Shown: positions 32,481-64,000 of the stretch, piece by piece
Numbering within the stretch: position 1 is the first letter of the stretch
Layout: every line of letters begins with the position of its first letter
Source of the DNA: Podarcis vaucheri
Lineage: Eukaryota
Reading direction: 5' to 3' (one strand)
DNA: 64,000 bases
NCBI GenBank assembly: GCA_965113315.1
Contig: OZ220363.1
Program-made: the position numbers and the translations under genes
Notes under the pieces: model-generated
The model's input: only the letters and a program-made list of their open reading frames with translations
What the model was told of the DNA's origin: nothing
Databases searched by the model: none

Positions 32481-33720
32481 CTGACCGAATTAAGCCTCCC
32501 AGGAGGTTTTTGCTCTAGGAACCTTAGTTTGCTCAGAATTGAGTATACACTTCCAGAGTTAATGCTAAATACATTACTTCTGGTAAATGAACTACCATAA
32601 CCACTAGAGAGCTGTGAAAATTTGTGTCCAGGCTCTTCTACCCATGTACTATCTGAAACCAAAGGAGCATATTGGTTGCTAGATGTGAATTCCCCCCCCC
32701 CCCCAGCTTTCCTACCCCACTACTATGGAAGAGTACCTTTTCCCATTGCATGTAAGGAAGACAGTTGTCAAGGTGAGCCTGTCTGGCAGTCCATAGATGT
32801 AACACACCTGAAGATTATCGCAGCAGAGGATTTGTGGGCCGCTAGATGTTGTCAGACTCTCAACTCTCACCAGCCTCAGCAACCATAACCAATTAGATGA
32901 CTTACATCTGTAACTAAAGTTACAGCCTTAACAAGGGGCGACCCAGTGTTTCCACACTGAAGTGATAATACAAGACAGACACCAGGAGTTATCATGCAAT
33001 TAATCAATGGAGTGCCAGATTTTTTAAAATGCTTAGGATTTATTATTATAAAAATCACAGTAAGCCTCTTTCTTGCAAGCCAAAATTTTCACAGTACAAT
33101 GTTAAAATTCCGAATACAAAATGCCTGGCTGTTGTAATGTTATTCTTCCACCTGCAATAGGAAATTATTTCCAAATCTAGCTCTAGCAAGGGAATACACT
33201 CGGCAACCATTCTGTGTGAGTTTTATTGGCATGCGACTGCCAATGCGAGCACTGTTTTCAGCCCCAGAAGGGAGCGGAATGTGGCGAGCTTATGCACACT
33301 CCACTGACACACGAGATGACCCAGAACGCAACCCCTGTGCAAACGGAGTTGCCTGGAATATAAAGTAGCATTATAAATTATTTTCTCCCGAAATGCTTTA
33401 TTCATAGGAATCAAACCTTAAAATAGCAAATGAACTCATTGTGCCTATGACCGAACAGCGAGTTTGCTACCACAAACAGTTGCTTTGGTTAGTGGTAAAC
33501 CTTCAGTAGATTTTGATTGTTGAACATACTTAAAATAATCATCCAGCTGGGACAATGTGCATGCGTATCCAGATGTGTACATGCAAATTCCCTGGCAGTC
33601 TGGAAGGCAAGCGTGGAAGTGGGCTCAACAAGCATCCATAGTACAGCAGTGCACATGCAGTTCCTCTGACTACTGGATCAGGACTGTAGCCCTGATTACA
33701 ATTCATATTTTACATGAATA

Positions 33721-34077
33721 AAGGTAAAGGTACCCCTGCCCGTACGGGCCAGTCGTGTCCGACTCTAGGGTTGTGCGCCCATCTCACTCAAGAGGCCGGG
33801 GGCCAGCGCTGTCCGGAGACACTTCCGGGTCACGTGGCCAGCGTGACATCGCTGCTCTGGCGAGCCAGAGCCGCACACGGAAACGCCGTTTACCTTCCCG
33901 CTAGTAAGCGGTCCCTATTTATCTACTTGCACCCGGTGGTGCTTTCGAACTGCTAGGTTGGCAGGCACTGGGACCAAACAACAGGAGTGCACCCCGCCGC
34001 GGGGATTCGAACCGCCGACCTTTCGATCGGCAAGTCCTAGGCGCTGAGGCTTTTACCCACAGCGCCACCCGCGTCCC
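33721..34077 (-). mobile_element. Sauria SINE (young, CpG-rich subfamily)
   Basis: TSD ATTTTACATGAATA at 33707-20 and 34080-93. Confidence 0.9.
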
Positions 34078-37860: not shown

Positions 37861-40800
37861 CTGCAGAGAAAAGGAAAAGGCAATGTTCAATATAACTTAG
37901 CCATCATCAGATCCTGCCTTTTAAATGGAAAGATGTTTGTCAAAGCGGGTGATAAATAACATGCCTTTATGAAGATAACAGCATCTGTACCATAACCCTC
38001 TAGCGAATAGAGCTTCAGATCTCCTTGGAAGTACTGAGCATAGAGACGGGATATAGGCAAGCCGTAACCAAATCCAGCCTAAACATAACACACACAGAGA
38101 CACAAAAACCGACAACAAGAGAGTTAGCTAAAACATGAAAAACAAAAATAGTAATGGGAGGAGTTCCAACTTGCACTCTTCTGATCATTGCACCAGCGCA
38201 AGCATTTTAGCTTGCCATCCAAATGGCCCCCTTCCTTCCTGCGATGTTCTGTGGCCTTCTTGACACACGTCCCCCACCAATTTTGGGGGGTGCGAGGGAA
38301 GGACAGTGGAAACCCCCATCGCGTCCTTGTGTGAGCTTCTGCTAGTGGGACTTGTCTGTTGAATCCCGCCCAATATAATCAACATTTGCTAGAGAAAAAG
38401 CATTCTGTTGCTGGACACAAACATGAGAAAAGGGGAGCTACTTTTACAGTGAAAAGAAAATGAAGACAAAACTGCAGGTAGGTGTTCTCTAATATTCTTC
38501 CCAATCCGTGCCAATGGCTTCCTATTCAGATGAAACTGAAGCTTGCAGTTATTTATTTTTATTACATTTATAACTTGCCTTCCTTGAAAGGAGCTCAAGG
38601 TAGCATACATTTTTATTCCCCATTTTAATCTCACAACAAAGCTGTGAGAAAGACCCAATGTCACTCAGTAAGCTTCAACACTGGGGATTTGAACCCGAGT
38701 CTTCCAGGCCCTTGATGCAACACCCTTAACCACTAAGCCACACCAGTTGGGTCTTCCTCTCCTGTTCCTTCTTCTGTTCAGTTGCCCTTGAAAAAAAGCT
38801 GTTCATTTATCCCTATTGCATCTGCATGCAATTTTCTCTTCTGATAGGATCGCATGGGCATCTGAAATGGATATTCAGTAATTTCACTGTGTGACATGAC
38901 TGGCATTATCAGATGTATAACCACTAGGCATAAGGAAAGACAAGTGGTAGATAATGTGGTAGAAGATAGCACAGAAACTCAGATGAAATGTAAGAACAAG
39001 CAGACACAGGACCTAATGGTGTATGAATTTGTCTCGCTGAACAATGCTCTTATTTGACTTGCTGTGGAGTATAAAAAAATGCCCAGATAAGCCACCAAAA
39101 CAATATAGGCACCAGCTCACAGACTCTTCAGCCTTAAACTTATTAGCATTTAAAATAGTTGCACACCACTCTAGAAAGCAGGGAGCAAAAATGGCAGTGA
39201 GGCTGTTCTTGCCCATGAACTGGAGCAAGTTACATGCATCATTAACTGCACAAAGCAGGGTTTTACTGATGGAACAGTGCCTCACTAGAGCCTGATTTTC
39301 TTCACTGAAGGTTTTTTTTTTGCATTTGGAAGTTTGTTTATACATGCAACAGTGGAACTCTAGATACTGGCTTTAGTTATTAATAACATCATTCTGGATC
39401 ACAAAACAGAGAAACCAGTAGGAGAACACTTCAATCTCCCAGGACATTCTATACAAGATCTCAAAGTAGCTGTTTTACTACAAAGGAATTTCAGAAATAG
39501 ACTGGAAAGAGAAGCTGCTGAATTGCAACTCATTACCAAACTCAAAACCATGGAGAGACCTGGTCTGAACAGAGACATTGGATTCTTATCTCATTATACA
39601 TGACTAAGCCATTTCTCACCTTCTCACCCCTTGCCTTTTCCTGTAGACCTATTGCAGTCGTTAAGAGTCGTCAACAGGCTCATCTCAGCTACCTGCCAAT
39701 CTCCCATTCCCACCACCCTTCTGGGTAATACCCCTCCCCACCTTCTCACTATATAGAAGGATCTGGCAACTTCTGTTTCAGTGTATCTAAAGAAGTGTGC
39801 ATGCACACGAAAGCTCATACCAAGAACTAACCTAGTTGGTCTTTAAGGTGCTACTGGAAGGAATTTTTTTATCATTCTGGCCCATATTCACCATAAGCAA
39901 CGGATCAGTGTATGGGCAACCTACAGCCAGTGTGGTCTAATTTCATGTGGCTCTTTGCCTAAATTCTAAAGAGTTCTCTGCAAATTTACATCGGGCAAGA
40001 GTGATCTGTCCTTTCCTTGGTAGCCTGCTGGATAGGCAAGAAATGGATAAGGGTGGTGAGAGAAGCAAGAAAGAGCAAGAAGCTCTGCATGTACCCACTA
40101 CTGGCTTTTGCCCCCCACCCCACATTACCCCAAAGGAATGCTGCCCTCAACCGGAAAAGCCCCCCCCCCTTTAATGTACAAGGAAATATTTTGTTAACCA
40201 CTTCAACTAACTAATTTGCTAACTGCCAATGCAAGGCATCACATAAAAATGGCCTACATACCAGAGGTGTTGCTCGCGATGTCTCAACACGGGGACGGGG
40301 TGCAGTTGAATACATGTAGTTAAACAGCCGATCTATTTTCCTCAAAGGAACACCACCGCCACGATCACACATCTAGAATGTGGAGGGGGGATTAGGACTT
40401 GGGGACGATTCTGGCTAAAAACAAATGCTGGCATACCCAACCTTACATCAGAAATATACACCTTGTATTTTTTATTATGTATTTAATGTTTTTATATTGT
40501 GCTTTTACCTAGGGGACTGCGCTGAGACCTGCGAGTATAGTGTGCTATACTAACTGAATGAATGAATGGTGAATGGTGGCCTGCATGCACAAAATGTACT
40601 TCTTCAAAACGATTTATAACACTACTCTTCAGTTAATAGAATAATAAAAAGTTAAAGGGGCCCCTGACCATTAGGCCCAGTCATGGCTGACTCTGGGCTT
40701 GCGGTGCTCATCTCGCTTTATTGGCCGAGGGAGCCAGCATACAGCTTCCGGGTCATGTGGCCAGCATGACTAAGCCGCTTCTGGTGAACCAGAGCAGCGC

Positions 40801-43800
40801 ACAGAAAAGCCGTTTACCTTCCCGCCGGAGCGGTACCTAGTTATCTACTTGCACTTTGACGTGCTTTCGAACTGCTAGGTTGGCAGGAGCAGGGACCAAG
40901 CAACGGGAGCTCACCCCGTTGTGGGGATTCGAACCGCCAACCTTCTGATTGGCAAGTCCTAGGCTCTGTGGTTTAACCCACAGCGCCACCCACGTCCCTC
41001 TGATAGAATAATAATAGGCAGCTAATATAAATATAATAATGCAAATCATACAAAACCAAAGATTTCTTTTTCAATGCCAAATACCGGTAAGTAAAAACAA
41101 CAGAAAACCTTTCAATAGCAGCCCCAATCTACAAAAGATATAATCCCCACAAGGTCTCTTTAAAGCCAGGAGTGGACCACAAGCTGTGATCCAGCAGAGA
41201 GTGTCAGTTAGGATATTTCACAGCTGAGGAGGCAGCAATCGAGAGTCTGCTCATACAACCATCCACTGAACCTCAGATGACACAGGGACATAGTGGAGGG
41301 TCTCCAAATGTGGAATAGGGCTTTGGGAAGCTACATATGAGAGGAGGTGATCAAGAAATCCTAGGCCCTGGCCATCGCTGCTGATGAAACAATATTGTAG
41401 CAATGCATCCTACCTGTCTGGCTCCGTTTAAAACCCTGGCAGCCTTTTGGATCGAGTTTCAGAACGCTCTTCAATGGCAGACAGTCCACTCTTGATATTA
41501 CTATGACTGTGACCAGGCCTGTTCAGTTCAAGAGGGGGGCTGCAGCTGGAGAAAAGCACTCAGGACCACAGCTGCCACTCAAACATCCAAGAATAACGAT
41601 AGATCCAGGAGCATCTCCCAGCTGCTCATCTGAATGTTATGGGGAGCACAACCACGTCCAAAATAGGCTGAACAACTCATCCTGGATCAGAAGATCCCTG
41701 AATTGGCAAAATACTCTAGCAGTCCTGTTTGACATCATATATGCTGCTTCCACTTGCTACTTTATGACCAGGTAATTAAAAAAATGCCCATGGCAGGTAA
41801 ATGCACATCAAGGTGAAAATTACAGTGGTGCCCCACAAGACGAATGCCTCGCAAGACGGAAAACTCGCTAGACGAAAGGGTTTTCCGTTTTGGAGGTGCT
41901 TCGCAAAACCAATCTCCTATGGGCTTGCTTCGCAAGACGAAAATGTCTTGCGAGTTCCTGCAGGTTTTTTTCCCTTCCCCCCCCTTTTCCCAAGCCGCTA
42001 AGCCGCTTATCAGCTGATCCGATAAGCCGCTAAAAGCGCTAATAGCGCTAATCCGTCAATGGGCTTGCTTCGCAAGACGAAAAAACCGCTAGACGAAGAG
42101 AATCACAGAACTGATTCTTTTCGTCTTGCGAGGCACCACTGTACTGCAAAACCAGTGCTTTAACCGTTTGCCAGGACTACAAAGTGGGAAATGAGAGAGT
42201 AAACAAAGCCATTACCTTCACAGTTAAATCCTCATTGCCTAATGTGACGTGGACATGAATTGGAGGGTAAACGTCTCGATTCGCATGATGTTCCATTGTA
42301 GCTCTCATTGCATTCTAAGATTTCAAAACATGGAAGTAATGGCCGAATTACATATCTGTATATCATTTTAGCTTGGTAATTTAATAAAACAGTTCCATTT
42401 AGCTGTGATCACATAATGATTCACAAGATTTTAGAATAAACTTGTTCCAGAATACATTATAAAGTTGCTTCCTGCTTTGTAAACATTTTATGAAGCTACC
42501 CATCCGACTTGACTAGTATTTGGTTATTTCTGTCTTTCAAGATTGAAAGTTATTTCATGGATGCAGTGCAAGAACGGGAACAGTAGTCTGAATTCTGTTC
42601 CCTGCCGTTTTAGAATTTAAATACAGGCAACAACGTATATTTTGTATTTTAGATATGAAATCGAGTCCCTTTACTTGCAGAGCAATGCATGGAAACAAAA
42701 TCTGGAGGGCAACTCTATCATTCTCACATGCGACCCTGTGCACATAAAGGGATCCCCTAGGGGTGGGGAATCTCCAGATGTTAAAAGGCAGTCATGACCA
42801 CAGCTGCCACCTAAACATAGAGGAATAATGCCAGTTCAGGCATGGGGACACTTCACTTCTGACTGCCTAGCCAATGGTCAGATATGACTGGGTTGCAATA
42901 TGTCCGGTATTTCATGGAAATATCCTGAATACTGCGTGTGGTGGGAATCGGTGAAATGTCTGGGAAATTCCAGATGTATGGCAGCCCATGTTATTGCAGT
43001 CGTCTTTCCTGATTTTCCATAACAATAGCTGAGAAACGGCAATTTTTGCGACACTATGCATCTTTGGGCAAACCTAAAATGCTCAACAATTTTGCCTGCT
43101 CCCCTCAAAAGGCTCAACAACTGCCTAGATGTTCAGTTTGTAATATGGCAACCCTGGATATGGTAAGAGTTGTAATCCAACAACATCTGCAGACCCACAT
43201 TGAAGTACTAAGCCCAACTCCAGTCCTGGTGACCACAGCTTGACCTGAAGCCCTAAAGATAAAGGTAAAAGGAAAGGGACCCCTGACCGTTAGGTCCAGT
43301 CACGGATGACTCTGGGATTGCGGCGCTCATCTCGTTTTACTGGCCGAGGGAGCCAGCATTTGTCTGCTTCCGCAGACAGTTTTTCCGGGTCATACGGCCA
43401 GCATGACTAAGCCGCTTCTGGCGAACCAGAGCAGCACACGGAAATGCCATTTACCTTCCCGCTGAAGCGGTACCTATTTATCTACTTGCACTTTGACATG
43501 CTTTCGAACTACTATGTGGGCAGGAGCTGGGACTGAACAACGGGAGCTCACCCCGTCGCAGGGATTCAAACCGCCAACCTTCTGATCGGCAAGCCCTAGG
43601 CTCTGTGGTTTAGACCACAGCACCACCCACATCCTATAACCTGAATAAAAAGTTTGCTGACCCCTGGTAACTCAAAAATCAGCCTGCTCTTCTCTGAGCT
43701 CCTTGTTACACTGGCTACTTCCCTATGAGATTATGTTCACCTGACTCTTTTGACGGGAATGAAAATAAAACATCTAGCTGAGATGTGGGACATTATCAGG

Positions 43801-46800
43801 TATGACCAGGAGAACAGCTTTTGCATGAGGGCAAGATAGGGTGCTGTGGCTCATCAGAATACCTATGGAGACCTCCTTTAAGACAGTAGATTGTGTGTAA
43901 GCCTCAAGCGCTTGTCTTTAAAAGTGATCTACCCTCCCCCCCTCTTTTTTTCAGCGTATCAAATGTCAGGAATTGCCATGTTTGTCTTGTCTCTTGACAG
44001 TTTGGCAACAGAAAACAGAGAAGGAGGATCCACAACATATCAGTGTGTGTTTTATACAAACCTTGAAAAGTTCAAAAACCATGTAGTAGAGATGTGACGG
44101 GACATACACCACCTGCATGGGCTGCCCTGGCGATTTTACTGTAAAAAGAGGGGAACAAAGAAACAACAACCAAGTGCTGAACTATCAGTTTTGGCAAGGC
44201 CTGACTGAGCACGACTAGACAGTGTGGCCCTCTTAGAAGTTTACAATGGCTCAGAGTCAAAAAGCTTCTTTAGGCATGCCAAACAGAGCTTGTATATCTA
44301 TCCAGGGCTATTTTTGGATTCCCACCTGCCCCTTTTTGAACACAAGCAACCTCTGCCCCCCCAAATACCATATTATTCTGAAACTTCAAAAATAGTACCG
44401 TATTTTTCGCTCTATAAGCCACACTTTTTCCCTCCTAAAAAGTAAGGCGAAGTGTGTGTGCGTCTTATGGAGCGAATGCAGGCTGCGCAGCTATCCCAGA
44501 AGCCAGAACAGCAAGAGGGATCGCTGGGATTCAGAATATTTTTTTTCTTGTTTTCCTCCTCCAAAAACTAGGTGCGTCTTACGGTCTGGTGCGTCTTACG
44601 GTCTGGTGCGTCTTATAGAGAGAAAAATACGGTATGTTGGAACTAAGCGCATACATGCTTATTTGGATCCAGGTACATAATATTTGTTTTTCTATTTTAT
44701 TATCTGTCTAAAAGATGTCCACTCCCCAATTTGAGAAGGTATATTGGAAGTATACCATAAATGCTATCTCCGTGGCTTGTGCGTCACAGGCCTTGCACAC
44801 ATAAAGACACATCCTCTTTGCAATAGTAACCGCTGAAGGTTGTTGCAGCTCTTTACCTTTTCAGTAAAAGGTCGCACATGGTGTATATATGTCCGATTTA
44901 CTCTCTGCCCAGTGAAATAAAATCCTGATCTGGCAGCATTACAGGGCTGTGTTAAAGGTAAAGGGACCCCTAACCATTAGGTCCAGTCGGGGACGACTCT
45001 GAGGTTGCGGTGCTCATCTTGCTTTATTGGCCGAGGGAGCCGGCGTACAGCTTCCGGGTCATGTGGCCAGCATGACTAAGCCGCTTCTGGCAAACCAGAG
45101 CAGCGCACGGAAACACCATTTACCTTCTACTTGCACTTTGACATGCTTTTGAACCGCTAGGTTGGCAGGAGCAGGGACCGAGCAACGGGAGCTCACCCCG
45201 TCGCGGGGATTCGAACCGCCGACCTTCCAATCGGCAAGCCCAAGGCTCAGTGGTTTAACCCACAGCGCCACCCGTGTCATGCTGAAATGTGTTCAGTATG
45301 TGCAAGTTCCAAGTAAACCTTAAATAGCTCGTTTCAAAGAAGTATTTGAAGAAAAAGTATCGCCCACAGTGTAGCTGTTGCAGTTATCATTGTGGGATAA
45401 GTGGTCTCACAACAAAATGTGCCTGGTGGAGTTATGAACTCATGGGTAGGCAACCTAAGCCCTGCGGGCCTTCTAAATCGCCTTCTAAATCGGGCCCATG
45501 GACAGTCCGGGAATCAGTGTGTTTTCCCATGAGTAGAATGTGTCCTTTTATTTAAAATGTACCTCTGGGTTATTTGTGAGGCACAGGAATTTGTTCATTT
45601 TTTCTTCTTCAAAATATAGTCCGGCCCCACCACAAGGTCTGAGGGACAGTGGACCGGCCCCCTGCTGAAAAACGTTTGCTGACCCCTTGTAACTCGACAC
45701 CGAAAGCTACTTCACAAGGTCACGCTATGAACTTTTCACAGCAAACCCTGCAAGACGTTTCTTTCACTGTGCAAACACAATGCAGAGACCTGCAGCCGCC
45801 CGAGGTCCCCCATAGCATATTTCTATAATGAAATCGGCATATATAGACACATCGTGTTTAAGGCTGTGCCCAGGATACCCGATTAACATTCTATCCACCA
45901 GAGGCAGCCCCTGTTTGTACTGCAGACTGAGCAAGACAGTCATCACACACGTGAGGCCCAACCAATGGAAAGATGAGCACTACTACCGCAGACACAGTCT
46001 AAAAAGGGAGACCGGCACAAAAAAGAGGCAGCGTATGATAAATCCTTGCCAAGGACTTGTGACTTCCTTTAATAACCCACTCCACTTCCTGTCCTTACCG
46101 TTTCTCTCCTCGAGTACAAGTTCTGGAGAATTCATGTAATACAGGTCACAAAGGGTCTTTGCATTTTCATAGCCGTCTGCAAAAAAAATGAAGCACAACA
46201 ATTTTGTTTAAAGGTTTACACTTCGCAGCTCTGCACAATATCCTGGCGGAAGTTTTTTAAAATGTCAGGAAACAGATTAACGACAGCCCAGTTCTTAAGT
46301 GTTCAGGAATGAACTGCTGACGACTGCAGCTGACACCAATTATGAATATTTCTGGCCACAACAACTCAAATTACTAACTACAGCTGCATGCATGCCTTGA
46401 TTCGGTGCAAAGTACAGAAAAAGTGTATAGTAATGCAGATTTTAATTTCCAGAGCTTTCTTTTCTTTTTTAAGAAAAAAAAAGTCAAATATATTGTCCCT
46501 GAGGTTGAACGTGTTTGAAAGTGTGTGAGCAATGTTTGGTAAAATCTCAGAAGCCAGAGCGGATTAAAATTTCCAGTAGCCTTTCACAGCCCCCGCCCGC
46601 GGTGACCAGCCAAATACCATATATTTCGCTCTATAGGACGCACCCGACCATAGGACGCACCTTGTTTTAGACAGGGAGAACAAGAAATTCTCTCCCTCTC
46701 TGCGCGGCGCCCCTTCAGCGAAGCGGCAGGAGAAACAGAGCCCCTTCCATTTCTCCTCCCGCTTCGCTGAAGGGGCGCTGAGCGGAGAGGGAAAGCTGTG

Positions 46801-49800: not shown

Positions 49801-52800
49801 GGGGAACCCTTTTCCTGTGAAGGAGGGCTACATAATGATTCTTATTCTGACAATTAATTTATTACTCACCTTCTAAACCACTGCCTCAACGCGATTTACA
49901 CACAAGATAATTAAAAACACAAAAACAGCAAATGCATATAAAACATGACTGAATCCTGAAAATTTGGTAGTAAAAAACTATTTAGCCAGCTGGGAAATAA
50001 TTCAACAGGAATGCTGTTCTATTCCACAGGTCAGGGACAGTCACATGAAAAGTCCTGCTCTGTGGAATACACAGCTGTTTCTTACAGGGATCGAACCTGC
50101 AACCTTGGGGTTATCAGCACCATGCTCTAACCAACTGAGCTATCCATGAGCCCATTGCAGTAATCCAACTCTGAAGTTACCAGAGCATGGGCAATCAAGG
50201 TTAAGTTATCTCAATCCTGGAATGGTTGTAACTTCCTTACCACCCAAAGTTGGTAAAAGACACTTCTAGTCACCCCTACATCAACTTGAGGGTAATCTGT
50301 TATGGACCACAATCTGGCAGTGGGCAGGTCTCCCTTTTTCTTTCTCTCTTCCTCCAGTGGGCTGCGAGGGGAGGGTCAAATAGCTCTTGCTAGAGATATG
50401 AACCTTCACCTTCCTTCCATTACTCCATCCAATTGAGCTGTTCACCCATTCCTCCCTCGTCCTACCCTACTCCCATCCTTTCGGGCGCATCTGTCACCTG
50501 CCACAAAGAAATTAGGTTGAGGTCTGCATTAAATTAGTAACATTGGTTTCTATCAAAAGGGATTTGGACAAGAAGCAAGCACGTAGCTTTGCTCAAGTTT
50601 AGCAAAAATCCTTATGTACTCTATGAGCAATGCAACAGAAGCCACTGACACTGCAATATATTTTTCTTGTGTAACACTGTTGAAATGCCAACAACACACA
50701 ACTGCTATAAGAAAAACAACCACCCCACACTCTTGAAGAGTGGCAAAATGATTTTTTCATTTCCTAGCAATATCACCACAGTATTAGCTAATGCTCAATT
50801 TAGAGCTCATTCACCACACTTGCCTGATACATGTCAATATTTGGAGATACACATTTTCCTTCACATTTTTTACGCTACTGAGCACTGTAAACACCAAACA
50901 CGGAGGTGTACTTAGCAAAAGCGAAATTATCGCATAAAGTCCAAATTAGTCTTCATAATGTTTCTGCTATCAGGTACACTGTTTGAATACAACATATCAG
51001 CTGCCATGTCACACATGGTAGTGTTAAGAGTGCTGCAATTAGATACATTGAGGCAAATGGCAGACTACAAACCAGATTAGATTTGAACAATATTGCTGAA
51101 ATGTTTTTTTTTTTTTTTTTTATAATAATTTTTATTACATTTTTTGCAGAAATAACAAAGAGATAAAAAGAAAAAAAGACAAGAAAAAAAAGGAAAAAGA
51201 AAAACACGACCATTTCGATAACTCATTTCAAATTTCCATTGGACTTCCCCCATCCCTCGCAGAATGCATTTCTTGACAATAAATTTATCAGCAAATTATA
51301 TCCTTATTTCGTGTGTTTCTTTCTATTTTCAATTACAATTTAAGTTTAAATCTCTTGATCAACATATACTCTAAGCAATATACCATAATATCGTTTTTAC
51401 CCATTTAAACCTTGGTTCTTTCGTAAATCTTATCAAATTTCATAAATAATTAAGTTTTGTTACTGGGGCTAGATTCCCAATCACACGACATCTTATGTTT
51501 CATATAACTTATAATACTTTTGCAAATAGTCTTTAAATTTTTTCCAGTCCTCCTCCATTGCTTCTTCTCCCGTGTCTCGGATCCTTGCAGTCATCTCGGC
51601 TAATTCCATGTAGTTCATCAGTTGCGTGTGCCAGTCCTCCAGTGTGGGCAAATCTTGGGTCTTCCAATGCTTAGCGATAAGAATTCTTGCTGCTATTGTA
51701 GCGTACATAAAAAAGGTTCTATCCTTTTTAGACACCTTCTGGCCGACAATGCCCAGAAGGAAGGCCTCTGGTTTCTTGGGAAAAGTGTACTTAAACACCT
51801 TTTTTAACTCATTATAGATCATTTCCCAGAAGGCCTTCAGTCTTGGGCAGGTCCACCAGAGGTGAAAGAATGTTCCCTCAGCTTCCTTGCATTTCCAACA
51901 TTTGTTATCGGACAGATGGTAAATCTTAGCTAACTTAACCGGGGTCATGTACCACCTGTATACCATTTTCATAATGTTTTCTTTCAGAGCATTACATGCA
52001 GTAAACTTCATACCGGTGGTCCATAACCTTTCCCAGTCATCAGACATAATATTATAACCAATGTCCTGAGCCCATTTTATCATTGCTGATTTAACTGTCT
52101 CATCTTGAGTGTTCCATTTAAGCAGCAAGTTATACATTCTGGATAATAACTTGGTCTTTGGTTCAAGCAACTCTGTCTCAAGTTTCGATTTTTCCACCTG
52201 GAAACCTGTTTTTTTGTCTAACTTAAAAACCTCATTGATTTGGGCATAATGCAGCCAATTTTGCACCTTATCCTTTAATTTTTCAAAGCTCTGCAATCTC
52301 CAGTTACCTTCAATATTTTCTATTATTTCCCAATATTTCGGCCAATAAGCCTCCATATTGGTTGTTTTCCGAGCTTTGGCCTCTATTGGTGAGATCCACC
52401 TCGGAGTTTTACTTTCCAATAAGTCTTTGTATTTTTTCCAGACCATATATATTGCTTTTCTGACAATATGGTTTTTAAACATTCCATATGATTTACCCTT
52501 GTCATACCACAAATACGCATGCCAACCTGACGAATTGTTAAAGCCTTCCAGATCTAGGACATCAGTGTTTTCTAATAGAATCCAATCTTTCATCCAGCAG
52601 AAGGCTGCCGCTTCATAGTATAACCTTAGGTCCGGCAGGGCAAACCCCCCTCTCTCTTTTGCATCAGTTAATATCTTAAACTTTATTCGGGGCTTTTTGC
52701 CCTGCCAGACAAACCTAGAAATGTCCTTCTGCCACTTTCCAAAACATTCCACTCTGTCCACAATCTGCAAGGCTTGAAACAGAAACAACATCTTTGGCAA

Positions 52801-55800: not shown

Positions 55801-58581
55801 TCCCTGTTTCGCAGTTCCACCAAAGACAGGTAGGCCTGCTGGTCTGTGATATGTTTGTGGAGCGGTCTTACCTCTCCTTTCAATTCCTCCACTCCTTTGG
55901 CTGCGGCCTCTGCTTTCCCAATCGCAGCCTCCGCCAATTTTCGATTTTCAGATGTTACGTCGTTTAAGTTTCCAATATCCTGTGAATGCTTAGCCACCTG
56001 TTCCGAAAGTTTGGTAATTGAAGATGTGGCTAAGTCAATTTTTGCAGTTTGATCATCCACTTTTTTGTTCAAAATTGCGAATTGTTGTAACATTTCCTCT
56101 AAAAGAGTGTTAGATCCTCCAGATGCCATATCCTCACCTATTGGTTGTTCAGCTTCTTCAGCTGGTGTTGTTGGCGAGGGTGCAGTCTGTAAAACGGCAG
56201 GGACTGAAGATCTGCGTCCCTGAGAAAACAGGGTTGTTTGTGTCAGTTTGCCTTTCCCTGCCTTCGACGCAGCTCTTGTTTTTACTTTATCGCTCATTCC
56301 ACACCTGTCTTTGGATTCAAGGTCAGGCTGTCAAAAGTTTCATGAGAAAGGCAGGCACAAGCGTAAACAATCCAACCACAGAAAGACAAAGCAAAGTTAG
56401 TTCTCAGGAAATTGTAAGTCCCAAGTTCCACTAGAGGGAGTAAGTTGCAATTCAGGGAAGAAGAAACAAAGTTTCAGACGCCATTAAAGTTCCTTAAGTT
56501 AAATAAATTAACGCTGATCCTTGGAAAAGACCTTTTCCCTCTAGCAGAGCTCTCACAATGTTGCCATAAGCTTCTTAAAAGGTGCAAAAGTACAGTTGTT
56601 TAATTGTATCCAACAGTAATGCCTCTAAGTGTCCATTTCAAATTTATAAGTATATCCGCAAAGTAGCCTTTTGTCCCACTGCAAGCCCGAGACTGGGGGT
56701 TTTAAAGTCTTTAAAATTTAAAAAAGTCCGGCGGAGGAGAAAGTCCCCAGATAAGGTACAGAAAATAGCAAGGAAATAAAGGTAACTTGCCTGCTTCAGT
56801 TTCCGACTTTTCCGAACGTATGATGTCTCACTTTAAAATCTCTCCGCACTGCTTCCAGCTTGTCAAATCTTTGCTTTTGATCACTAGCATCCTCGGGAGA
56901 CGGACTTCCTTTTTCTCGCCTCCCGCTTTCAGCCAAATTCGTAAATTTGTAATCCAATTTTGAGTAAATCTTACTCACGAGTAGTTGGTTTGTAATCCAA
57001 TGTAAAAGGAAGAAAGGTCGGCGCTCATCCGCAACAGCCGCGCGGCTTCACTCCCACAGAAAGAGCGATGAATCCACAGCACCGCTTCCCCTCCGCGCTT
57101 CCGGAGCCCCTTACGGGGTCCCTTCTTCGTTTTGGGGGTCGCTCTAGGTGCCCGCCGGATCCCACGGCCACGAGCTCACTCTGCTCGTAGTTTTTCTTAA
57201 TGGGTCGTCGCTTTGCCGCAGCGAACGACCCTTTTCTGCGGAGCCCCTCTTCGCAGCGCAAAGAGGACCGCCATTGCTTGCTTCGCGCCGCCTCCGGAAG
57301 TCAACAATATTGCTGAAATGTTTTTAAGATATTATATAAACCTGGCGCTTGCAGGCTGATATCATAGGACGTTACTGCTTCTCAACAGATAAGGGTGTAG
57401 AGTTTAGCTGATGCAATATGCACATGTTGTATAAAACATTCAGCAGGGCCACTTGCAATAAATAAGGAAAAGTAGCCATTCACACACACACACAAACACA
57501 AGTCCATTTTATAAATGGTCCACTTTGAGGAGAAATTAACATTATGGAATCCTGGCTTTAGAAGAGGACTCCGCACACTATGATTGGGAAGTGCAGGCCT
57601 CTGCAATAATGACAACCAGAGCAGAAAACCGTTCCAGGATAAAAAGGGCCATCACTTACTAAGACACATCTGAGCAGAGAGAAAAGTGCTAGATTCAATA
57701 AAGCTGAATTATTTGCACGGCAACATCACACCTCTCTGCTCAGACTCCAGAAGAATCCCTTCCTCGCCTGTTAAGGTGGCTGCGTGGCAATTTCCCTTTG
57801 CTGGAATCAGTCGCTTGGCACACTAAGCAAGAGAATTTGGGCGCGCGTGTTAATGAAAGCTCTTAATTAAAACTGGCACCGCCAACCACAAGCGTGTTTA
57901 CTCAGCCTCGGGAATGCAATGTGTTGTTGTTGCTGCTGCTGCTGCAATAAAAGCGTGAGCCTATTTGCAAAGCTAAGCGGGGTCAACTTGGATGGGGTCC
58001 CCGCCCGCGTGTTGACATTCCTGCACTGCAAGGGGTTGCGCTAGATGAGCCTGGGAGTCCCCCTTCCAGCTCTGCGCCTGCCGCCGCAGCATTACATTTG
58101 AACTCTCAGGCAACTCCGGAAGCAGCAGCCTAGTCGGATTTGTTTTGCTCGAAGCGACAACGCGAGGCCTCCTCCTCCTCCTCCTGACCTGCAAACCCAG
58201 AACCCGAATGGGAGCGGAGGGAGGCGGCACAGAGGACGCCCGTTCCCATTGGCTGCCCGCACCCAGGCGCCTGCCATGGCTGAGGGAGGGAGGGAGGGTC
58301 GCCGAGGGGAGGCCTAGCGCCCTCCGACCCCCAAGCAGGGTCTTGCAAGGGACGGCGTCCCACGGGGAGAAGAAAATGGTGGGCCGCTGGGAGGAAGGAA
58401 GTGCGCGAGCAAGCCAAGGGGGCGCCGCGCTTTCCCACCGGGTTGGCGGCGGCGCTCACTCACCGAAGTCGAGGAACTGCTTCATGGAGAGGGGCGAGGG
58501 GGAGAAGCGGCAGTAGAAGTCCACCTGCTGAGGGATAGTGGCCGGGGAGACGCTCCTCAGCAGCGCCCGGAGGAGCCTCAT
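37720..58581 (-). CDS. PDK1: Pyruvate dehydrogenase kinase isozyme 1, mitochondrial; complete, 11 exons, 410 aa
   Basis: Exons (minus strand) 58581-58464, 49599-49458, 49154-49083, 48279-48095, 47513-47418, 46176-46099, 44138-44062, 42314-42216, 40372-40262, 38078-37965, 37860-37720; total 1233 nt in frame. Peptides [78 protein letters not shown] and [20 protein letters not shown] resemble PDK1 more than PDK2-4. Confidence 0.96.
37965..38078 (-). CDS. PDK1: PDK1 exon 10 (GC donor)
   Basis: 114 nt; [38 protein letters not shown]; donor AAG|gcatgt. Confidence 0.93.
39390..39870 (+). mobile_element. Penelope-like element 3' fragment (GIY-YIG C-terminus plus pLTR with mutated hammerhead), in PDK1 intron 9
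   Basis: Frame [64 protein letters not shown]; 39781-39870 matches the 59292-59387 arm. Confidence 0.85.
40262..40372 (-). CDS. PDK1: PDK1 exon 9
   Basis: 111 nt; [37 protein letters not shown]. Confidence 0.95.
40647..40998 (-). mobile_element. Sauria SINE
   Basis: Family body; TSD ATAGAATAATA. Confidence 0.9.
41823..42141. mobile_element. Tc1/mariner (Tigger-like) MITE
   Basis: TA|CAGTGGTGCC...GGCACCACTG|TA with internal CGCAAGACGAA repeats. Confidence 0.85.
42216..42314 (-). CDS. PDK1: PDK1 exon 8
   Basis: 99 nt; [33 protein letters not shown]. Confidence 0.95.
43261..43634 (-). mobile_element. Sauria SINE
   Basis: Family body and tail. Confidence 0.88.
44062..44138 (-). CDS. PDK1: PDK1 exon 7
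   Basis: 77 nt; [25 protein letters not shown]. Confidence 0.94.
44398..44632. mobile_element. Mariner-type MITE, family B (short)
   Basis: TA|CCGTATTTTTCGCTCTATAAG...AAAAATACGG|TA. Confidence 0.85.
44953..45278 (-). mobile_element. Sauria SINE
   Basis: Family body with a small internal deletion. Confidence 0.88.
46099..46176 (-). CDS. PDK1: PDK1 exon 6
   Basis: 78 nt; [26 protein letters not shown]. Confidence 0.94.
46617..47053. mobile_element. Mariner-type MITE, family B
   Basis: TA|CCATATATTTCGCTCTATAGG...GCGAAAAATACGG|TA. Confidence 0.85.
47418..47513 (-). CDS. PDK1: PDK1 exon 5
   Basis: 96 nt; [31 protein letters not shown]. Confidence 0.94.
47646..47978. mobile_element. hAT MITE sharing termini with 25371-26758
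   Basis: Perfect TIR CAGGGGTCTGCAACC; TSD GACAAGGA (47638-45, 47979-86). Confidence 0.88.
48095..48279 (-). CDS. PDK1: PDK1 exon 4
   Basis: 185 nt; [27 protein letters not shown]...[19 protein letters not shown]. Confidence 0.96.
48700..48945. mobile_element. Tc1/mariner (Tigger-like) MITE
   Basis: TA|CAGTCATACC...GTACCACTG|TA. Confidence 0.75.
49083..49154 (-). CDS. PDK1: PDK1 exon 3
   Basis: 72 nt; [23 protein letters not shown]. Confidence 0.93.
49458..49599 (-). CDS. PDK1: PDK1 exon 2
   Basis: 142 nt; [48 protein letters not shown]. Confidence 0.95.
50063..50145 (-). mobile_element. tRNA-Ile-derived SINE head or tRNA pseudogene
   Basis: GGATAGCTCAGTTGGTTAGAGCATGGTGCTGATAACCCCAAGGTTGCAGGTTCGATCCC resembles tRNA-Ile, but the acceptor stem is broken. 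Confidence 0.7.
51493..55233 (-). CDS. L1 ORF2p (APE endonuclease, reverse transcriptase, CCHC), 1246 aa
   Basis: EN motifs SWNING, LQETH, IYAPN, GDMN, RIDQI, SDHN; RT motifs [33 protein letters not shown]; C-terminal CWKC-x8-H-x4-C. Confidence 0.97.
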   Translation of the reverse strand: MSLQLYSWNINGANSPEKRKRIFHILKKENLDIICLQETHVTRAHRKVLTNKRLGQEFISSDRVKKRGVVIYAKETLSPKFLFKDEQGRILAIEISTQGEKILILGIYAPNEGKSEFYKKLHETLLDYLDYSNIIMMGDMNGVVSTFMDKSQNQNLTKDGRLPKTFFELTDNMDLIDSWRTRNPLGKEGTFFSEAHLSWTRIDQIWTTRGLAPKTTKIEICPKTCSDHNALKMEMRFTTADSFRWKMNDNLLRDQEIVKKAQKALKDYFEINLNTSVEKRIIWDASKAVMRGFLIQQNTIKKKLWNGKKDKILEKIRDGEKKLRLNPKSKETLREIKFHQSQYAQLINQEVEWRIKQMKQRSFESANKCGKLLAWQLKKRQKLNYVTNLEVEGKNIQKPGEIRKCFQKYFKKLYTQGPEDVTEIEQFLKENGLPEISQEKRSTLNCKITQQEIEDAIQNMQLGKSPGPDGLTSKYYRTLKDYLIQPLEEVCNQIMGGGKAPDTWKEAFITLIPKVETEKTQLKNYRPISLLNVDYKIFADILANRFKKVLNEIIHKDQAGFLPGRHLFDNTRNIIDILELLQTNINTKAVLIFIDAEKAFDNISWKFMKKNLEGMGVGRGFENGIEAIYSEQKAKLIVNNVVTEELHIEKGTRQGCPLSPLLFISVLEVLLNMIREDRQVQGIRVGAKQYKLKAFADDLVLTLQEPEASTKRVLELIQKFGWVAGFKLNKQKTKVLGKNLTAMETEGFQKETELNIVKKVKYLGVNLSSKNLNLFKDNYEKCWLEVKKDLEIWSRLKLSLLGRIAAIKMNVLPKMLFLFQALQIVDRVECFGKWQKDISRFVWQGKKPRIKFKILTDAKERGGFALPDLRLYYEAAAFCWMKDWILLENTDVLDLEGFNNSSGWHAYLWYDKGKSYGMFKNHIVRKAIYMVWKKYKDLLESKTPRWISPIEAKARKTTNMEAYWPKYWEIIENIEGNWRLQSFEKLKDKVQNWLHYAQINEVFKLDKKTGFQVEKSKLETELLEPKTKLLSRMYNLLLKWNTQDETVKSAMIKWAQDIGYNIMSDDWERLWTTGMKFTACNALKENIMKMVYRWYMTPVKLAKIYHLSDNKCWKCKEAEGTFFHLWWTCPRLKAFWEMIYNELKKVFKYTFPKKPEAFLLGIVGQKVSKKDRTFFMYATIAARILIAKHWKTQDLPTLEDWHTQLMNYMELAEMTARIRDTGEEAMEEDWKKFKDYLQKYYKLYET
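55251..56297 (-). CDS. L1 ORF1p (coiled coil, RRM, CTD), 348 aa
   Basis: Uninterrupted ORF; heptad-rich N half; [29 protein letters not shown] and YRWEFP motifs typical of L1 ORF1. Confidence 0.92.
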   Translation of the reverse strand: MSDKVKTRAASKAGKGKLTQTTLFSQGRRSSVPAVLQTAPSPTTPAEEAEQPIGEDMASGGSNTLLEEMLQQFAILNKKVDDQTAKIDLATSSITKLSEQVAKHSQDIGNLNDVTSENRKLAEAAIGKAEAAAKGVEELKGEVRPLHKHITDQQAYLSLVELRNRENNLRLRSIPEIEKEDLTGFLTAEFSKFWGINQDTDFKITTAFRLGRVAGKDRPRDCLIILRTKQERDKLLDLHFNKALVIQDRRAQIYKDIPKQLLDLRANYTDLTGLLRGNGIPYRWEFPQGVLFKYKGKKIKIKTKEDCQKFLHDHGEDLQKGAAIWPPPESGKELPPSDSDKKEDTPQD

Positions 58582-59060
58582 GGCGACCCCTTGGCGCGGA
58601 GAGGCGCGCAAGGCGCACCAGGGCGCACGGGAAGCTGCGGCGCGGCGCGCTCCGCTCTCGTTCTGGGCCCCCCTTCAGGTCGTCCCCGCCGCCATTTCCA
58701 GGCTCGGCAGCTGCAAGCCGAACAGCCGGTGGCTTTCCCGGGCAGGTTCTCTGCTCTGTGCGGAGATAGAAGGGAGGAGGTGGGCGGCGGCGGCGGCGGC
58801 GACGCCAGGCAGGGACAAGGGGCCGGGCGACAAGAGCGGCAGCGGCAGCGGCAGCGCCTCCTCCTCCTCTCGGCGTCAAGCCAAGGAGGGGGGAGAGGCG
58901 GGCCGAGGCGGCGCGAAGGTGCGGCGGGTGGGTCCGGAAGAGCTGCTCCTTGGCGCTCCAACCTGAGGGAATCCGGGGCTTGCAGTCCGAGCCGCCTTTC
59001 GGCTACCTGCACCCGCTTCTTTGGCTGCGTTTCGGTGTTGCTCGCTGCGCGCGCGCCTTG
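57830..59060 (-). promoter_or_regulatory. PDK1: CpG-island promoter and 5' region of PDK1
   Basis: Sharp rise in GC and CpG density around exon 1; (GCC)n/(GCCGCT)n runs; YY1-like AAATGGCGG near 58697-58689. Confidence 0.8.
58464..58581 (-). CDS. PDK1: PDK1 exon 1 (mitochondrial presequence)
   Basis: gtcgccATGa Kozak; [39 protein letters not shown]; donor G|gtgagt. Confidence 0.94.
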
Positions 59061-59214
59061 TGTCTCTTTTAGCAGCTGGTATCCCACATTGTGGTGATTA
59101 AGATGCCTGCTCCTTGGGAGAAAGGCGATGGCAAACCTAGACAGCATCTTAAAAAGCAGAGACATCTTAAAAAGCAGAGACATCACCTTGCCAACAAAGG
59201 TCCGTATAGTTAAA

Positions 59215-59421
59215 ATAAAAAAATTCCTTCCAGTAGCACCTTAAAGACCAACTAAGTTAGTTCTTGGTATGAGTTTTCGTGTATCGTTTTCTGGTATCTG
59301 AAGAAGTGTGCATGCACACGAAAGCTCATACCAAGAACTAACTTAGTTGGTCTTTAAGGTGCTACTGGAAGGAATTTTTTTATTTTGACTATGGCAGACC
59401 AACACGGCTACCTATCTGTAA
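59215..59421 (+). mobile_element. Penelope-like element terminal fragment (inverted pLTR hairpin plus tail) inserted in BovB
   Basis: About 70-bp near-perfect inverted repeat (59213-59282 vs 59316-59387); 34-nt tail; 13-bp duplication CCGTATAGTTAAA at 59202-59214 and 59422-59434; homologous to the Penelope 3' end at 39781-39870. Confidence 0.8.
59292..59333 (+). ncRNA. Minimal type I hammerhead ribozyme motif (Penelope-type)
   Basis: Stem I TGGTAT(59292-97)/ATACCA(59328-33); core CTGAAGA 59298-59304 plus an extra A; stem II GTGTG-CATG-CACAC; GAAA 59320-23; palindromic minimal helix III (AGCT); predicted cleavage after C59327. Confidence 0.75.
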
Positions 59422-60711
59422 CCGTATAGTTAAAGCTATGGTTTTCCCAGTAGTGATGTATGGAAGTGAGAGCTGGACCATAAAGAAAGCTGATCACCGA
59501 AGAATTGATGCTTTTGAATTATGGTGCTGGAGGAGACTCTTGAGAGTCCCATGGACTGCAAGAAGATGAAACCTCTCCATTCTGAAGGAAATCAGCCCTG
59601 AGTGCTCACTGGAAGGACAGATCCTGAAGCTGAGGCTCCAATACTTTGGCCACCTCATGAGAAGACTCCCTGGAAAAGACCCTGATGTTGGGAAAGATGG
59701 AGGGCACAAGGAGAAGGGGACTACAGAGGACGAGATGGCTGGACAGTGTTCTCGAAGCTACCAGCATGAGTCTGACCAAACTGCGGGAGGCAGTGGAAGA
59801 CAGGAGTGCCTGGCGTGCTCTGGTCCATGGGGTCACAAAGAGTCGGACACGACTAAACGACTAAACAACAACAACAGTACAACATTATTATTACTATTAT
59901 TAGACCCCGCCCATCAGACTGGGTTGCCCCAGACTCTGGCCCAGCCACTCAGGGATACGACTCTGGCAGGGATGGCAGCGAGAATTGGGTTAGCTTTAAC
60001 GCACCTCACAACGGAGCTCAGAAGTAGGATGTGCTCCCAAGTAAGGCCAACTCTACAATTCTATTATTCTCTCTCTCTTCTTAATTCTTTATTGAAAAAT
60101 AAAAAAGTACAAAATTGTAAATGCACAGAGTAAGATAAGACAAAAATGAAGGGGGAAAAAACAAGAAATAAAACCCATATGGGAAACAAAACAGGAAAAA
60201 AGGTACTCTCAGTTTTTATAAATACCATATCTGATTAATGTGTGGTTAACTACAATAACAATCCCCCTCTTTTTTTGCAATGTACACAGTACAATTCTAT
60301 GATTCTTAAGTGCACAGGAGTACAGTCTTGAGTGACTTTGGCTGCAATCCTGAACGCACCTGGGAACAAACCCCACTGAACAATATAGTAGGACTTCCAA
60401 ATAAACATGCATAGGATTACAGTATGTTGTTACACACTGCAAGGGGAGAACAGAAATTCCTGCACCCTTTTTCTGTCTGCTAAAAGTCATGAATAAAGTT
60501 TTTCTCATCATTGTGTTTTTTTTTAAAAAAAGTTTAAACTTTCCCATTTCTTGGCCTGCAGCTCTTTAAAGATGTGTCAGTCGTGGGGGTGGGGAATAGC
60601 ATCATAAATAGACCCTCATGCACCCAGTTCCCACATGAAAACCGCCTTTGGCTGCTGTTCTGGGAGATTCTGCTCAAGGCGGGCCTATATTAGGGTGTAT
60701 TTATGTGTATA

Positions 60712-60938: not shown

Positions 60939-61218
60939 TAATTACAGAGTAAGGCCCACTGAATTCATTGGGACTGCTGCATAAACATGCTTATGATCAT
61001 GATTAAAAATAGAACTTGGTGAGGGCTGTTAGGAGTAGGGTGACCAGATGCAAAACAGAACAGTGCTAACAAATTGTTATCAGTTACATAAAAGGCAATG
61101 CAAAAGAAAATATAGAAGATACTGTCCTTTATACACTATTACAGTTGTGGGAGTCTTGTCTTTTGGACTTGACTAGGCTGATTAGAGCAATCGGTTCTGG
61201 CAAACAGGATTGGAATCT

Positions 61219-61540
61219 ATAAGGTAAAAAGAAGGTAAACGGCCCCTGGATGGTTAAGTCCCGTCAAAGGCGACTATGGGGTTGCGGCGCTCATCTCACT
61301 TTCAGGCCAAGGGAGCCGGCGTTTGTCCACAGACAGCTTTCTGGGTCATGTGGCCAGCATGACTAAACCGCTTCTGGCACAAAGGGACACCGTGACAGAA
61401 ACCAGAGCACACAGAAACACCGTTTACCTTCCCGCGGCAGCAGTACCTATTTATCTACTTGCACTGGCATGCTTTCGAACTGCTAGGTTGGCAGAAGCTG
61501 GGACAGAGCAACAGGAGCTCACCCCGTTGCAGCGTTTCGA
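61219..61540 (-). mobile_element. Sauria SINE (5'-truncated)
   Basis: Family body and tail; head missing. Confidence 0.85.
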
Positions 61541-62026
61541 ATTGGAATCTATAGCACATTATTAAAGATGCAACCCTATACACATCGGAGAGCAAGTCCA
61601 GTTGGATTTACTTCTCACTGGACATCGCTTCTCAGCAGAGTAGGATTGTATTGTAAGATTAATTTTGAGTAGTAGGGACTATTCTTTCGGGATAGTTTAT
61701 TCCATTGAAGTCTGCTTTTTTGATTACTTTCCCAACCTGGTCAGTATCTTAATTATTATGCATGTTTTACTGAGTACTTCCCCCCCATCCACTACACTGA
61801 GTACTACAGAGCTGATACATACACATTCTGTGAAAAGGCCTTAGTTTTCTGCAGTGCAGTAGGCTCACACCTTACTGCATAACTACCATTTTCGTGAATT
61901 TGTGTGTTGGTTCCTCCCTTTGGTAGTGGCTGCTGATTCTCAAACACCACTTCCATTTATTGGTTGCTGAAGAGACCTGCCTGAACTGTCAAATGTAGAA
62001 TCAGCGTGACAGAATTGCTTCCTATA

Positions 62027-62242: not shown

Positions 62243-63013
62243 TATTGTGGACATGTAAAATCTGTTTGTTTTTTTATTCATGCTAATTTAATAAGTATAT
62301 TATGCATAGCTGTGTAACCGGCTGGAACTCCCAAATGCAATGGTATAATGACAACATGGGACCTGATCTGTCATTAGTGAAACTACAATCCTTTTTCACA
62401 TGCGCATGTATAGGATTAAGTTTCGTAATCCTTAACACAATTCTTTGAAAATGAGGGGCCCTTAATAGCGGTGTGTCTTTACAAAAAAATAATAATGTTC
62501 CATTGAAACTGTGTAAGGAGGTTCCTTTTTTTTTTTAAGCAGGACTTAAAAAAATATTTTACTTGTAAGAAAACAGAAATGTACAAAAGAACATACAAAA
62601 GCAATGTTTAAAAGTTGAATTGAAATGACCGAGTTCTAAATACAGGAAATCCCTGCAAATTATAAATGAATACATTGTAAGTATAAACAAGGGCTTTTGG
62701 AAATAATCAGCCAACACTGGCAGGATTTCCAGTCAGGCATGTTCCTGAGGATATTTATAATTCCAAAATACATGGGTTTGGTTTTTTTTAATCCCAAGGT
62801 GTTCTTCAGAGCTCCATGACTGCCTGCGCTTTTAAATTTGTGTCAATTCTGACATGACCATCAAATACCAGGCTCCCCCCTCCCCTGACAATTTCCAAAA
62901 AAACTCAAGTATTTTTTGCAAAGCTTTGTTCCTGCCCTCCCACCCCTTATTGTCCTTATTTGCTGCATTCCTGAAAATATTTAAAAATCAAGCTTGTTGA
63001 TTCTGGTAAAGTA

Positions 63014-63363
63014 AAGGTAAAGGGGCCCCTGACCATTGGGTCCAGTTGTGACCGACTCTGGGGTTGCGGCGCTCATCTCGCTTTATTGGCCAAGGGAGCC
63101 GGCATACAGCTTCCGGGTCATATGGCCAGCATGACTAAGCCGCTTCTGGCAAACCAGAGCAGCGCACGGAAACACCATTTACCTTCCCACCGGAGCGGTA
63201 CTTATTTATCTACTTGCACTTTGACATGCTTTCGAACTGCTAGGTTGGCAGGAGCAGGGACCGAGCAACGGGAGCTCACCCCGTCGCGGGGATTCAAACC
63301 GCCAACCTTCTGATCAGCAAGCCCTAGGCTCTGTGGTTTATCCCACAGCGCCACCCGCGTCCC
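63014..63363 (-). mobile_element. Sauria SINE
   Basis: TSD TCTGGTAAAGTA at 63002-13 and 63364-75. Confidence 0.9.
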
Positions 63364-64000
63364 TCTGGTAAAGTAGTCACAAATAATTCCCTGAATTATT
63401 CGTTCTATCGTTTCCCAAAGCGTTTGATTTCACACAAATTTTTGGCAATGTTCATCCATTGCATTATTTAGGCTGAGGCTAAATTGGCTAGGACTTCCTT
63501 CCAATGAGAAAATGGGCAATAACTTTACCTTACCTCCCTCCCCTCCCCCGAGTTGTGAAATTTAGCATTTTTCAGAATCCCAAACAAAGTGGCCCTATGT
63601 AATCTACCCAGGCTCTCAGAACTGGTCCCGTGCAGTGTTTTCTCAAAAGCTTCCCTCATAAAAATGCCTCTCTGCTGTATTAAAAGCCTTTTCTGCATTA
63701 ACAGCCTACTGTCGATCAGCCAAAGAAACAACACTGGAGGAATTACCTTTAGATTGTTTTAGTGGTGGAATCGGTTTAAATCCGAGTTTGAAACTAATAG
63801 GTTTTCTTGATTTGCCTCTACAATCATAAATACCCTGGTTAGAGAACAGCATAGCTTTTGCTATGCCAAGCGTTTTATAATTTGAATCCCAAGTTTGTTT
63901 GTTTTTAATTTAGCTGTTTTGATTTTGTGTTTTCTGCTGTATACTGTATGGAGTGGCCCTAACCAGACTTAATATGGGTTACATGTTTGCAGAAATAAAA

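Follow-up and report, generated by a model that had tools for sequence, protein, structure and literature searches.

Minimal hammerhead ribozymes are known from the pLTRs of metazoan Penelope-like elements, PLEs (Cervera and De la Pena 2014, PMC4209133, in the part of the paper available to us). The same partial text describes a single S. mansoni minimal hammerhead that did not cleave, and multimers that cleaved weakly. In the accessible part of the study of the Anolis carolinensis Poseidon element PAc (Frangieh et al. 2024, PMC11167929), the hammerhead cleaved only with protein and was dispensable for insertion in vitro, and no reads of the element ended at the hammerhead cleavage site. The insertions of PLEs have a recognizable signature, which, according to the available portions of PMC8557442 and PMC3846280 (for the tail, also PMC11167929), consists of an inverted 5'-truncated copy, a one-sided tail of 30-40 bp and duplications of 8-10 bp.

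Here we consider a motif of this kind in a 64,000-nt stretch of Podarcis vaucheri DNA (contig OZ220363.1), hereafter the window. With a probability that we put at nearly nine in ten, it is an inert relic, that is, a minimal hammerhead stemming from a high-copy Penelope-like element (likely Neptune), of whose terminal repeat it was part, and now residing in a 207-bp truncated inverted insert 0.6-0.8 kb upstream of the PDK1 start, predicted to be buried by its own antisense arm, likely never cleaving and likely doing nothing for PDK1. The class has been known since 2014 and has a published turtle relative, and the focal motif is one of very many copies. Thus, being probably masked as well, it carries little weight as a PDK1 ribozyme.

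The hammerhead motif and its relatives

The motif, a minimal type I hammerhead, occupies 59292-59333 of the + strand, with the scissile bond predicted after C59327 (consensus as in Fig. S3 of PMC4209133, available in part). By sequence inspection, the strands of helix I are 59292-59297 (5') and 59328-59333 (3'). The CUGAAGA box (59298-59304) is followed by an unpaired extra A, A59305, and by helix II (59306-59310/59315-59319, 5 bp, loop CAUG), whose closing pair is G59306-C59319 (G10.1-C11.1). Then come the GAAA box (59320-59323), GC (59324-59325), U59326 and the predicted cleavage base C59327; helix III is a loop-less AGCU palindrome. All the bases that the first-pass annotation had described for 59292-59333 are present as it read them, and the features of PLE minimal hammerheads are found throughout: CUGANGA with an unpaired H and G10.1-C11.1, GAAA, a palindromic 15.2-16.2, a U-H site, and helices I and II that can form.

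A minimal-hammerhead descriptor, one of the checks proposed at the outset, bore this out with one match in the 64-kb window (both strands) and none in 200 dinucleotide-preserving shuffles. The occurrence of the motif is beyond chance. Judged on its bases, it is a PLE minimal hammerhead by every feature testable here, and its initial assignment to the PLE-type, dimer-dependent kind of minimal type I hammerheads stands; it fits the consensus of Cervera and De la Pena and resembles a turtle motif. A hammerhead was also looked for on the minus strand, which is sense for PDK1, and none turned up.

The second proposed check, a search with Rfam Hammerhead_1 (RF00163), gave no match. At the gathering score, the whole window has two Rfam matches, a tRNA and a Y RNA, and none to a hammerhead family; in 58800-59800, none of the 19 matches with E <= 10 is a hammerhead. 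The motif shares the catalytic boxes and the type I topology with Hammerhead_1 and the other Rfam hammerheads, but differs from these families in being unmatched at E <= 10 and in having a helix III that is not closed. MIR8562, the best local Rfam match, was rejected: its 61.6 bits (gathering score 211) reflect the long hairpin only.

No intramolecular loop closes helix III, as A15.1 and U16.1 are only two bases apart; thus, the monomer has no helix III that could be closed. Helix I comprises 6 bp at 59292-59333 vs only 4 bp in the second copy of the family in the window, where the next pair is U-C. In RNA run X23 of organism F, 364 family reads exit the alignment just before 59294 and continue as the flank of the second copy. 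Hence, of the six base pairs of helix I beside PDK1, two are junction-derived, and of the initially described 6-bp helix I the local presence is correct, but the native helix of the family has 4 bp, the two outer pairs coming from the junction. Helix II with its loop (59306-59319) is a perfect 14-nt palindrome.

The nearest relative listed in the available part of PMC4209133 (Fig. S3) is the motif of the turtle Chrysemys picta bellii. The two have in common the CUGAAGA box, the extra A before G10.1, G10.1-C11.1, a 5-bp helix II, GAAA, a loop-less palindromic G-C helix III and a native helix I of 4 bp. By eye, they differ by two-sided changes, from C-G to U-A in helix I and from G-C to U-A in helix II. 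Compared with the PLE minimal hammerheads described there, the lizard motif has a 4-nt loop II, a palindromic helix II and C, not U, as H17, and it carries two extra junction-derived helix I pairs and a masking antisense arm. No lizard is present among the rows of Fig. S3 that we examined.

Anatomy and parentage of the insert

The motif is part of an insert of 207 bp (59215-59421), which is nested in another repeat and flanked by a 13-bp target-site duplication (left copy 59202-59214, right copy 59422-59434, both given on the + strand). From left to right, the insert consists of an inverted 5'-truncated pLTR arm (59215-59282, minus strand, 68 nt, 97% identical to 39805-39872), an 11-nt inversion junction (59283-59293), a sense pLTR segment with the hammerhead (59294-59383, + strand, 97.8% identical over 90 nt to 39783-39872) and an optional PLE tail of 38 nt (59384-59421, + strand). 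The junction resembles a degenerate repeat of the native 5' flank of the family and provides the two outer pairs of helix I. The inverted arm contains the part from GAAA to the 3' half of helix I and the downstream pLTR, has neither the CUGAnGA box nor the tail, and is antisense, on the + strand, to the 3' half of the hammerhead. The tail is present in the sense arm only: the left arm and the intron copy share an end equal to 59383, the right arm extends to 59421, and 222 family RNA reads of X23 diverge at about 59421-59422 into mixed continuations. The resulting inverted repeat (59206-59282/59316-59392; 77 nt, 97% complementary) covers the 3' half of the motif, and the local picture given by the first-pass annotation, which had missed it, was incomplete.

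The host repeat (59098-59876, + strand, the left edge being approximate) is a 5'-truncated LINE ending in (ACA)n, which we take to be of the RTE/BovB type. Contig depth over it is approximately 10^5-fold that of the unique flanks, with loose ends at 59876; in run X1 the depth is 2.5 million vs 28, indicating a high-copy repeat and not to be taken as a copy number. In eight of the 15 joints shown (463 in total), 219-224 nt are skipped at the insert, so that the host repeat is uninterrupted at other loci. In five of the 15, the reverse arm is joined to the sense arm at breakpoints other than the focal one, and these we read as other inverted copies in the genome. Contigs also jump from the end of the pLTR back to where the hammerhead begins (59387 to 59294 in X3; 59323/59338 to 59292-59293 in X1); this suggests that other loci of organism A hold hammerheads in head-to-tail tandem, which could cleave as dimers.

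A remnant ORF of the host repeat (59423-59662) has one stop. The nearest family to a host-repeat piece in the Atlas search was DUF6451 (score 0.84, with a recognition score below the threshold, hence a weak lead), and two host-repeat pieces had no match in Pfam. The host repeat also contains an exact 18-bp tandem duplication (59145-59180), and 5 bases after 59658 that are missing from it here are present in 884 of 1298 RNA reads.

The second PLE copy (39391-39872, + strand) is 5'-truncated and non-inverted, sits in an intron of PDK1 in the antisense orientation, and has a 10-bp target-site duplication. It comprises the end of a GIY-YIG ORF (39391-39603), a pLTR and a hammerhead in which G5 is changed to A, a core change that kills hammerhead activity. 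The hammerhead copy (39783-39872) is situated 180 nt past the ORF end on the same strand, which places it in the pLTR and in the sense of the ORF. The ORF end is 97% identical to P0001 (tblastn E 2e-37), a 585-aa protein with RVT_1 (E 3.6e-12) and GIY-YIG (E 2.9e-5) domains, both above the Pfam cut-offs; Pfam had no match for the 79-aa ORF end. The focal insert has no ORF, and the RT and GIY-YIG ORF is tied to its family via the intron copy.

The linker joining RT to EN in P0001, C-x4-C-x2-C, conforms to the CX2-5CxxC pattern, which marks Neptune and Nematis PLEs according to the available text of PMC8557442. The parent element is likely a member of the Neptune clade, an assignment based on one linker motif, which is shared with Nematis, and not on a tree. 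Nine of the ten matches other than P0001 are Zootoca vivipara proteins carrying pieces of the ORF. These predicted proteins (P0002-P0006, P0008-P0011) contain a C-terminal piece of the PLE linker and GIY-YIG region at 80-84% identity, and eight of the nine have Pfam PF00619, presumably CARD; such fusions may result from exon capture or from an annotation artefact.

Directly before helix I, the native flank of the second copy (39770-39783, + strand) is a pyrimidine run ending in AG, similar to a 3' splice site, and in the D. virilis Penelope the intron end coincides with helix I (PMC4209133, available part). A masking of the core by the native 5' flank until splicing found no clear support in the folds, the hammerhead-like structure reaching predicted probabilities of 0.66, 0.71, 4e-5 and 0.11 in four windows placed around the intron copy.

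In several respects the family agrees with what the available parts of Craig et al. 2021 (PMC8557442) and Arkhipova et al. 2013 (PMC3846280) describe for EN+ PLEs of the Neptune clade: an ORF combining RT with a C-terminal GIY-YIG, a Cys linker, 5' truncation, a head-to-head inverted pLTR, a one-sided tail of 30-40 bp, a short duplication and nesting in a non-LTR element. The focal locus differs in having no ORF and in its 13-bp duplication, compared with 8-10 bp in the rotifer examples. With PAc, as far as the accessible text of PMC11167929 describes it, the insert shares the origin from a squamate PLE, a pLTR hammerhead, an AT-rich target and a pair of 3' boundaries separated by the tail (59383 and 59421), but the clade indicated by the linker motif is different. 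Animal non-LTR retrozymes (bioRxiv 10.64898/2026.07.22.740005, available part) are likewise non-coding PLE-derived pieces with a type I hammerhead; they are, however, head-to-tail tandems with two or more hammerheads, whereas the focal insert has one hammerhead and a head-to-head inversion. Retrozyme identity was rejected, as the window has one complete motif and the repeats are inverted.

PDK1, the orthologous site and transcription

The coding part of PDK1 exon 1 is at 58464-58581 on the minus strand, with the start codon at 58581 and PDK isozyme 1 as the best match (E 2.8e-9). Among solved structures, both exon 1 and a later exon score highest against isozyme 1, the margin over isozyme 2 being small for exon 1. 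The distance from 58581 to 59292 is 711 nt, in agreement with the earlier figure of about 0.7 kb upstream of the start. The 5' UTR and the CpG island run on to about 58940-59100 (CpG o/e 0.94 in 58600-59100). The motif is approximately 250 nt past the island edge, and the insert approximately 120 nt inside the repeat that abuts the island.

Four of the 24 listed runs (X1, X3, X14 and X23) were aligned to 58600-60300; X1 may be the window's own sample and does not count as independent support. X14, from the related species that we call organism F, includes a 2992-nt contig that matches 58600-59088 and then 59884-60113, the two parts being 5 letters apart. Thus, the orthologous site is empty there, both the host repeat and the PLE piece being absent. 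The motif is not conserved at this site in the one other species examined, and a conserved host ribozyme was rejected on this ground. The unique contigs of X1 end at the repeat edges, 59129 and 59882. In X3, a second sample of organism A, the match extends to 59097, beyond which 22 letters remain, and no contig among those listed bridges the repeat.

The RNA run X23 (one library, of which about 12 in 100 reads were used) comes from organism F, a species without the insert. In its unique 5' UTR bins, the reads have a single direction, as predicted for PDK1 sense transcription, and fade at about 58940; bins 58999-59055 and 59968-60024 have no reads. At 58771-58884, reads of the opposite direction reach depths of 6.7 and 9.8, but four differences are present at 58844-58854 in 18 of 18, so that they probably derive from other GGC-repeat loci. 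Two partly repetitive bins beyond the insert have 0.4-1.5 reads in both directions. At the insert bin itself there are about 300 and 250 reads per direction, which come from other loci, family RNA being abundant in organism F. In 58600-60300, we saw no sites where many RNA molecules begin or end, a weak test with a fragmented library. The search for divergent transcription suggested by the first-pass annotation, made on this stranded run, gave no clear signal. The absence of divergent reads is weak evidence, since the species lacks the insert, a single library was used, and divergent promoter RNAs are short-lived. Nothing relevant to a hammerhead at the PDK1 promoter is present among the literature matches listed.

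Predicted masking, rival explanations and origin

All fold probabilities given here are equilibrium predictions, and the event measured is that both helix I and helix II form while the core stays open. For the motif alone, its probability is 0.17. In the + strand RNA, a hairpin stem predicted to have approximately 68-77 bp holds the GAAA box, AGCU with helix III, C59327 and the 3' strand of helix I; the fold of 59240-59380 has an energy of -72.8 kcal/mol (z = -12), and none of 200 shuffles is as stable. In a chain that starts at 59215 and just reaches 59333, the open-core probability is 1.8e-7, and in four longer contexts with both full arms it is 5.5e-16 in all. The masking cost imposed by the upstream antisense arm is 21.7 kcal/mol, and chains starting between about 59274 and 59292 escape it, the probability returning to 0.17. 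As a divergent + strand RNA would copy the antisense arm (59215-59282) first, the predicted probability of the hammerhead fold in it falls from 0.17 to about 5e-16. Dimerization brings no energetic gain: the double-hammerhead dimer has -20.9 kcal/mol vs -21.8 for two monomers, while in the best two-strand fold (-40.4 kcal/mol) the palindromic helix II strands are paired and helix III is open. Thus, given the 14-nt palindrome of helix II, two molecules are predicted to pair there rather than as the catalytic dimer. A tandem partner is lacking as well, the only other copy in the window being 19.5 kb away and having the G5-to-A change. According to these models, the hammerhead at the PDK1 site likely never cleaves.

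If transcripts diverging from the PDK1 island traversed the hammerhead and cleaved themselves at C59327, as a monomer or as a trans-dimer, the antisense RNA could be trimmed or terminated; this is close to what the first-pass annotation had proposed. The core is indeed intact, it is on the strand that such a transcript would read, only about 250 nt past the island edge, and the isolated motif folds with a probability of 0.17. However, the antisense arm lies upstream and costs 21.7 kcal/mol, helix III has no loop, the catalytic dimer is not preferred to two monomers and the best duplex leaves helix III open, and in the related species the site is empty and its unique bins have no divergent reads. 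We regard this explanation as very improbable, and the proposal of a potentially self-cleaving divergent PDK1 transcript is not supported, given the predicted masking, the open helix III and the lack of a tandem partner. Cleavage might also occur only upon rescue, either by a transcript start inside the junction or by the element's own protein refolding the motif in trans. Masking is gone if transcription starts at about 59274 or later, protein assists the anole Poseidon hammerhead (PMC11167929, available part), and family RNA is abundant in organism F. On the other hand, there is no sign of a start site in the junction, RNA ends do not pile up (the same weak test on a fragmented library), and the anole element has no reads ending at the cleavage site in the same partial source; the chance of such a rescue seems slim indeed.

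Alternatively, with the ribozyme silent, the insert could act near the PDK1 island by forming a long hairpin or a cruciform, or by attracting silencing as a repeat, thus being a lineage-restricted cis-regulatory variant. The near-perfect 77-nt arms, a DNA strand fold of -81 kcal/mol, the position about 120 nt within the island-abutting repeat, and the small RNAs yielded by rotifer PLE copies (PMC3846280, available part) would all be consistent with such a role. Nevertheless, other inverted copies apparently exist in the genome (five of the 15 joints shown), hence nothing singles out the one adjacent to PDK1, and the insert is absent from the relative and is therefore dispensable; a regulatory function is improbable. 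The inert relic is thus the reading that we prefer, and the location beside PDK1 is best explained by a high-copy repeat having inserted there by chance. The intact catalytic core, compared with the mutated second copy, fits a young insert, and selection is compatible with it too.

For such a relic, the course of events might be as follows. An RTE-type LINE fragment would have landed beside the island, and a PLE protein would then have nicked an AT-rich site within this fragment, with only the 3' end of the pLTR reverse-transcribed, twice and in opposite directions. In the parent element, a ribozyme of this class would cleave, if at all, as an AGCU-mediated dimer or with the element's protein, as the available literature indicates. 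The minus strand of the target at the left duplication (59202-59214) matches the continuation of the element, 59384-59392, in 8 of 9 bases, and this may be a priming microhomology. In PAc, priming occurs at RNA sites that are not homologous to the cut DNA (PMC11167929, available part), whereas the focal insert has these matching bases at one end. Apart from one gap, the reverse arm ends in a sequence that matches the native 5' flank.

A tentative explanation, which we consider possible but rather less than even, is that twin target-primed reverse transcription by a dimeric Neptune particle left the insert as its footprint. Both nicked strands of the target would have served as primers, each for one internal start (59383 and 59421), and the two short cDNAs would have been joined by microhomology at 59275-59282; the start at 59383 may have been aided by 9 nt of pairing between target and RNA, including one wobble. 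The two arm ends and the microhomology are compatible with twin priming, as are the cleavage and extension of both strands by the anole PLE protein described in the accessible part of PMC11167929. Snap-back self-priming, proposed for inverted pLTRs of rotifer PLEs (PMC3846280, available part), is almost as good a fit, twin priming being slightly favoured by the shared end at 59383. Our literature search on this idea listed a review of human elements and the rotifer PLE paper; most subscription journals were outside its coverage, so novelty is not implied.

The clean junctions bear on how PLEs form inverted pLTRs, by self-priming (PMC3846280) or by priming on both strands, which is compatible with the in vitro data (PMC11167929; both sources in part). 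If true, twin priming would explain how PLEs come to have pLTRs that are inverted head-to-head and tailed on a single side, and the inversions made in this way would automatically silence the hammerhead that they copy. More generally, PLE inversions place an antisense arm beside the motif, hence hammerheads found by sequence should be folded together with their flanks.

Three further features were recorded in the window. The Rfam Y RNA match (18598-18717, + strand) scores 40.1 bits (gathering score 38) and has a 23-nt insertion. The tRNA match (50084-50142, minus strand; 40.5 bits) is partial, lacks the acceptor stem and is probably the head of a tRNA-derived SINE. A repeat of about 350 bp is present in at least eight copies that are 70-91% alike (28353-28716, 29144-29908, 33692-34082, 40634-41005, 43262-43642, 44953-45278, 61218-61541 and 63001-63370), which we take to be Sauria-type SINEs.
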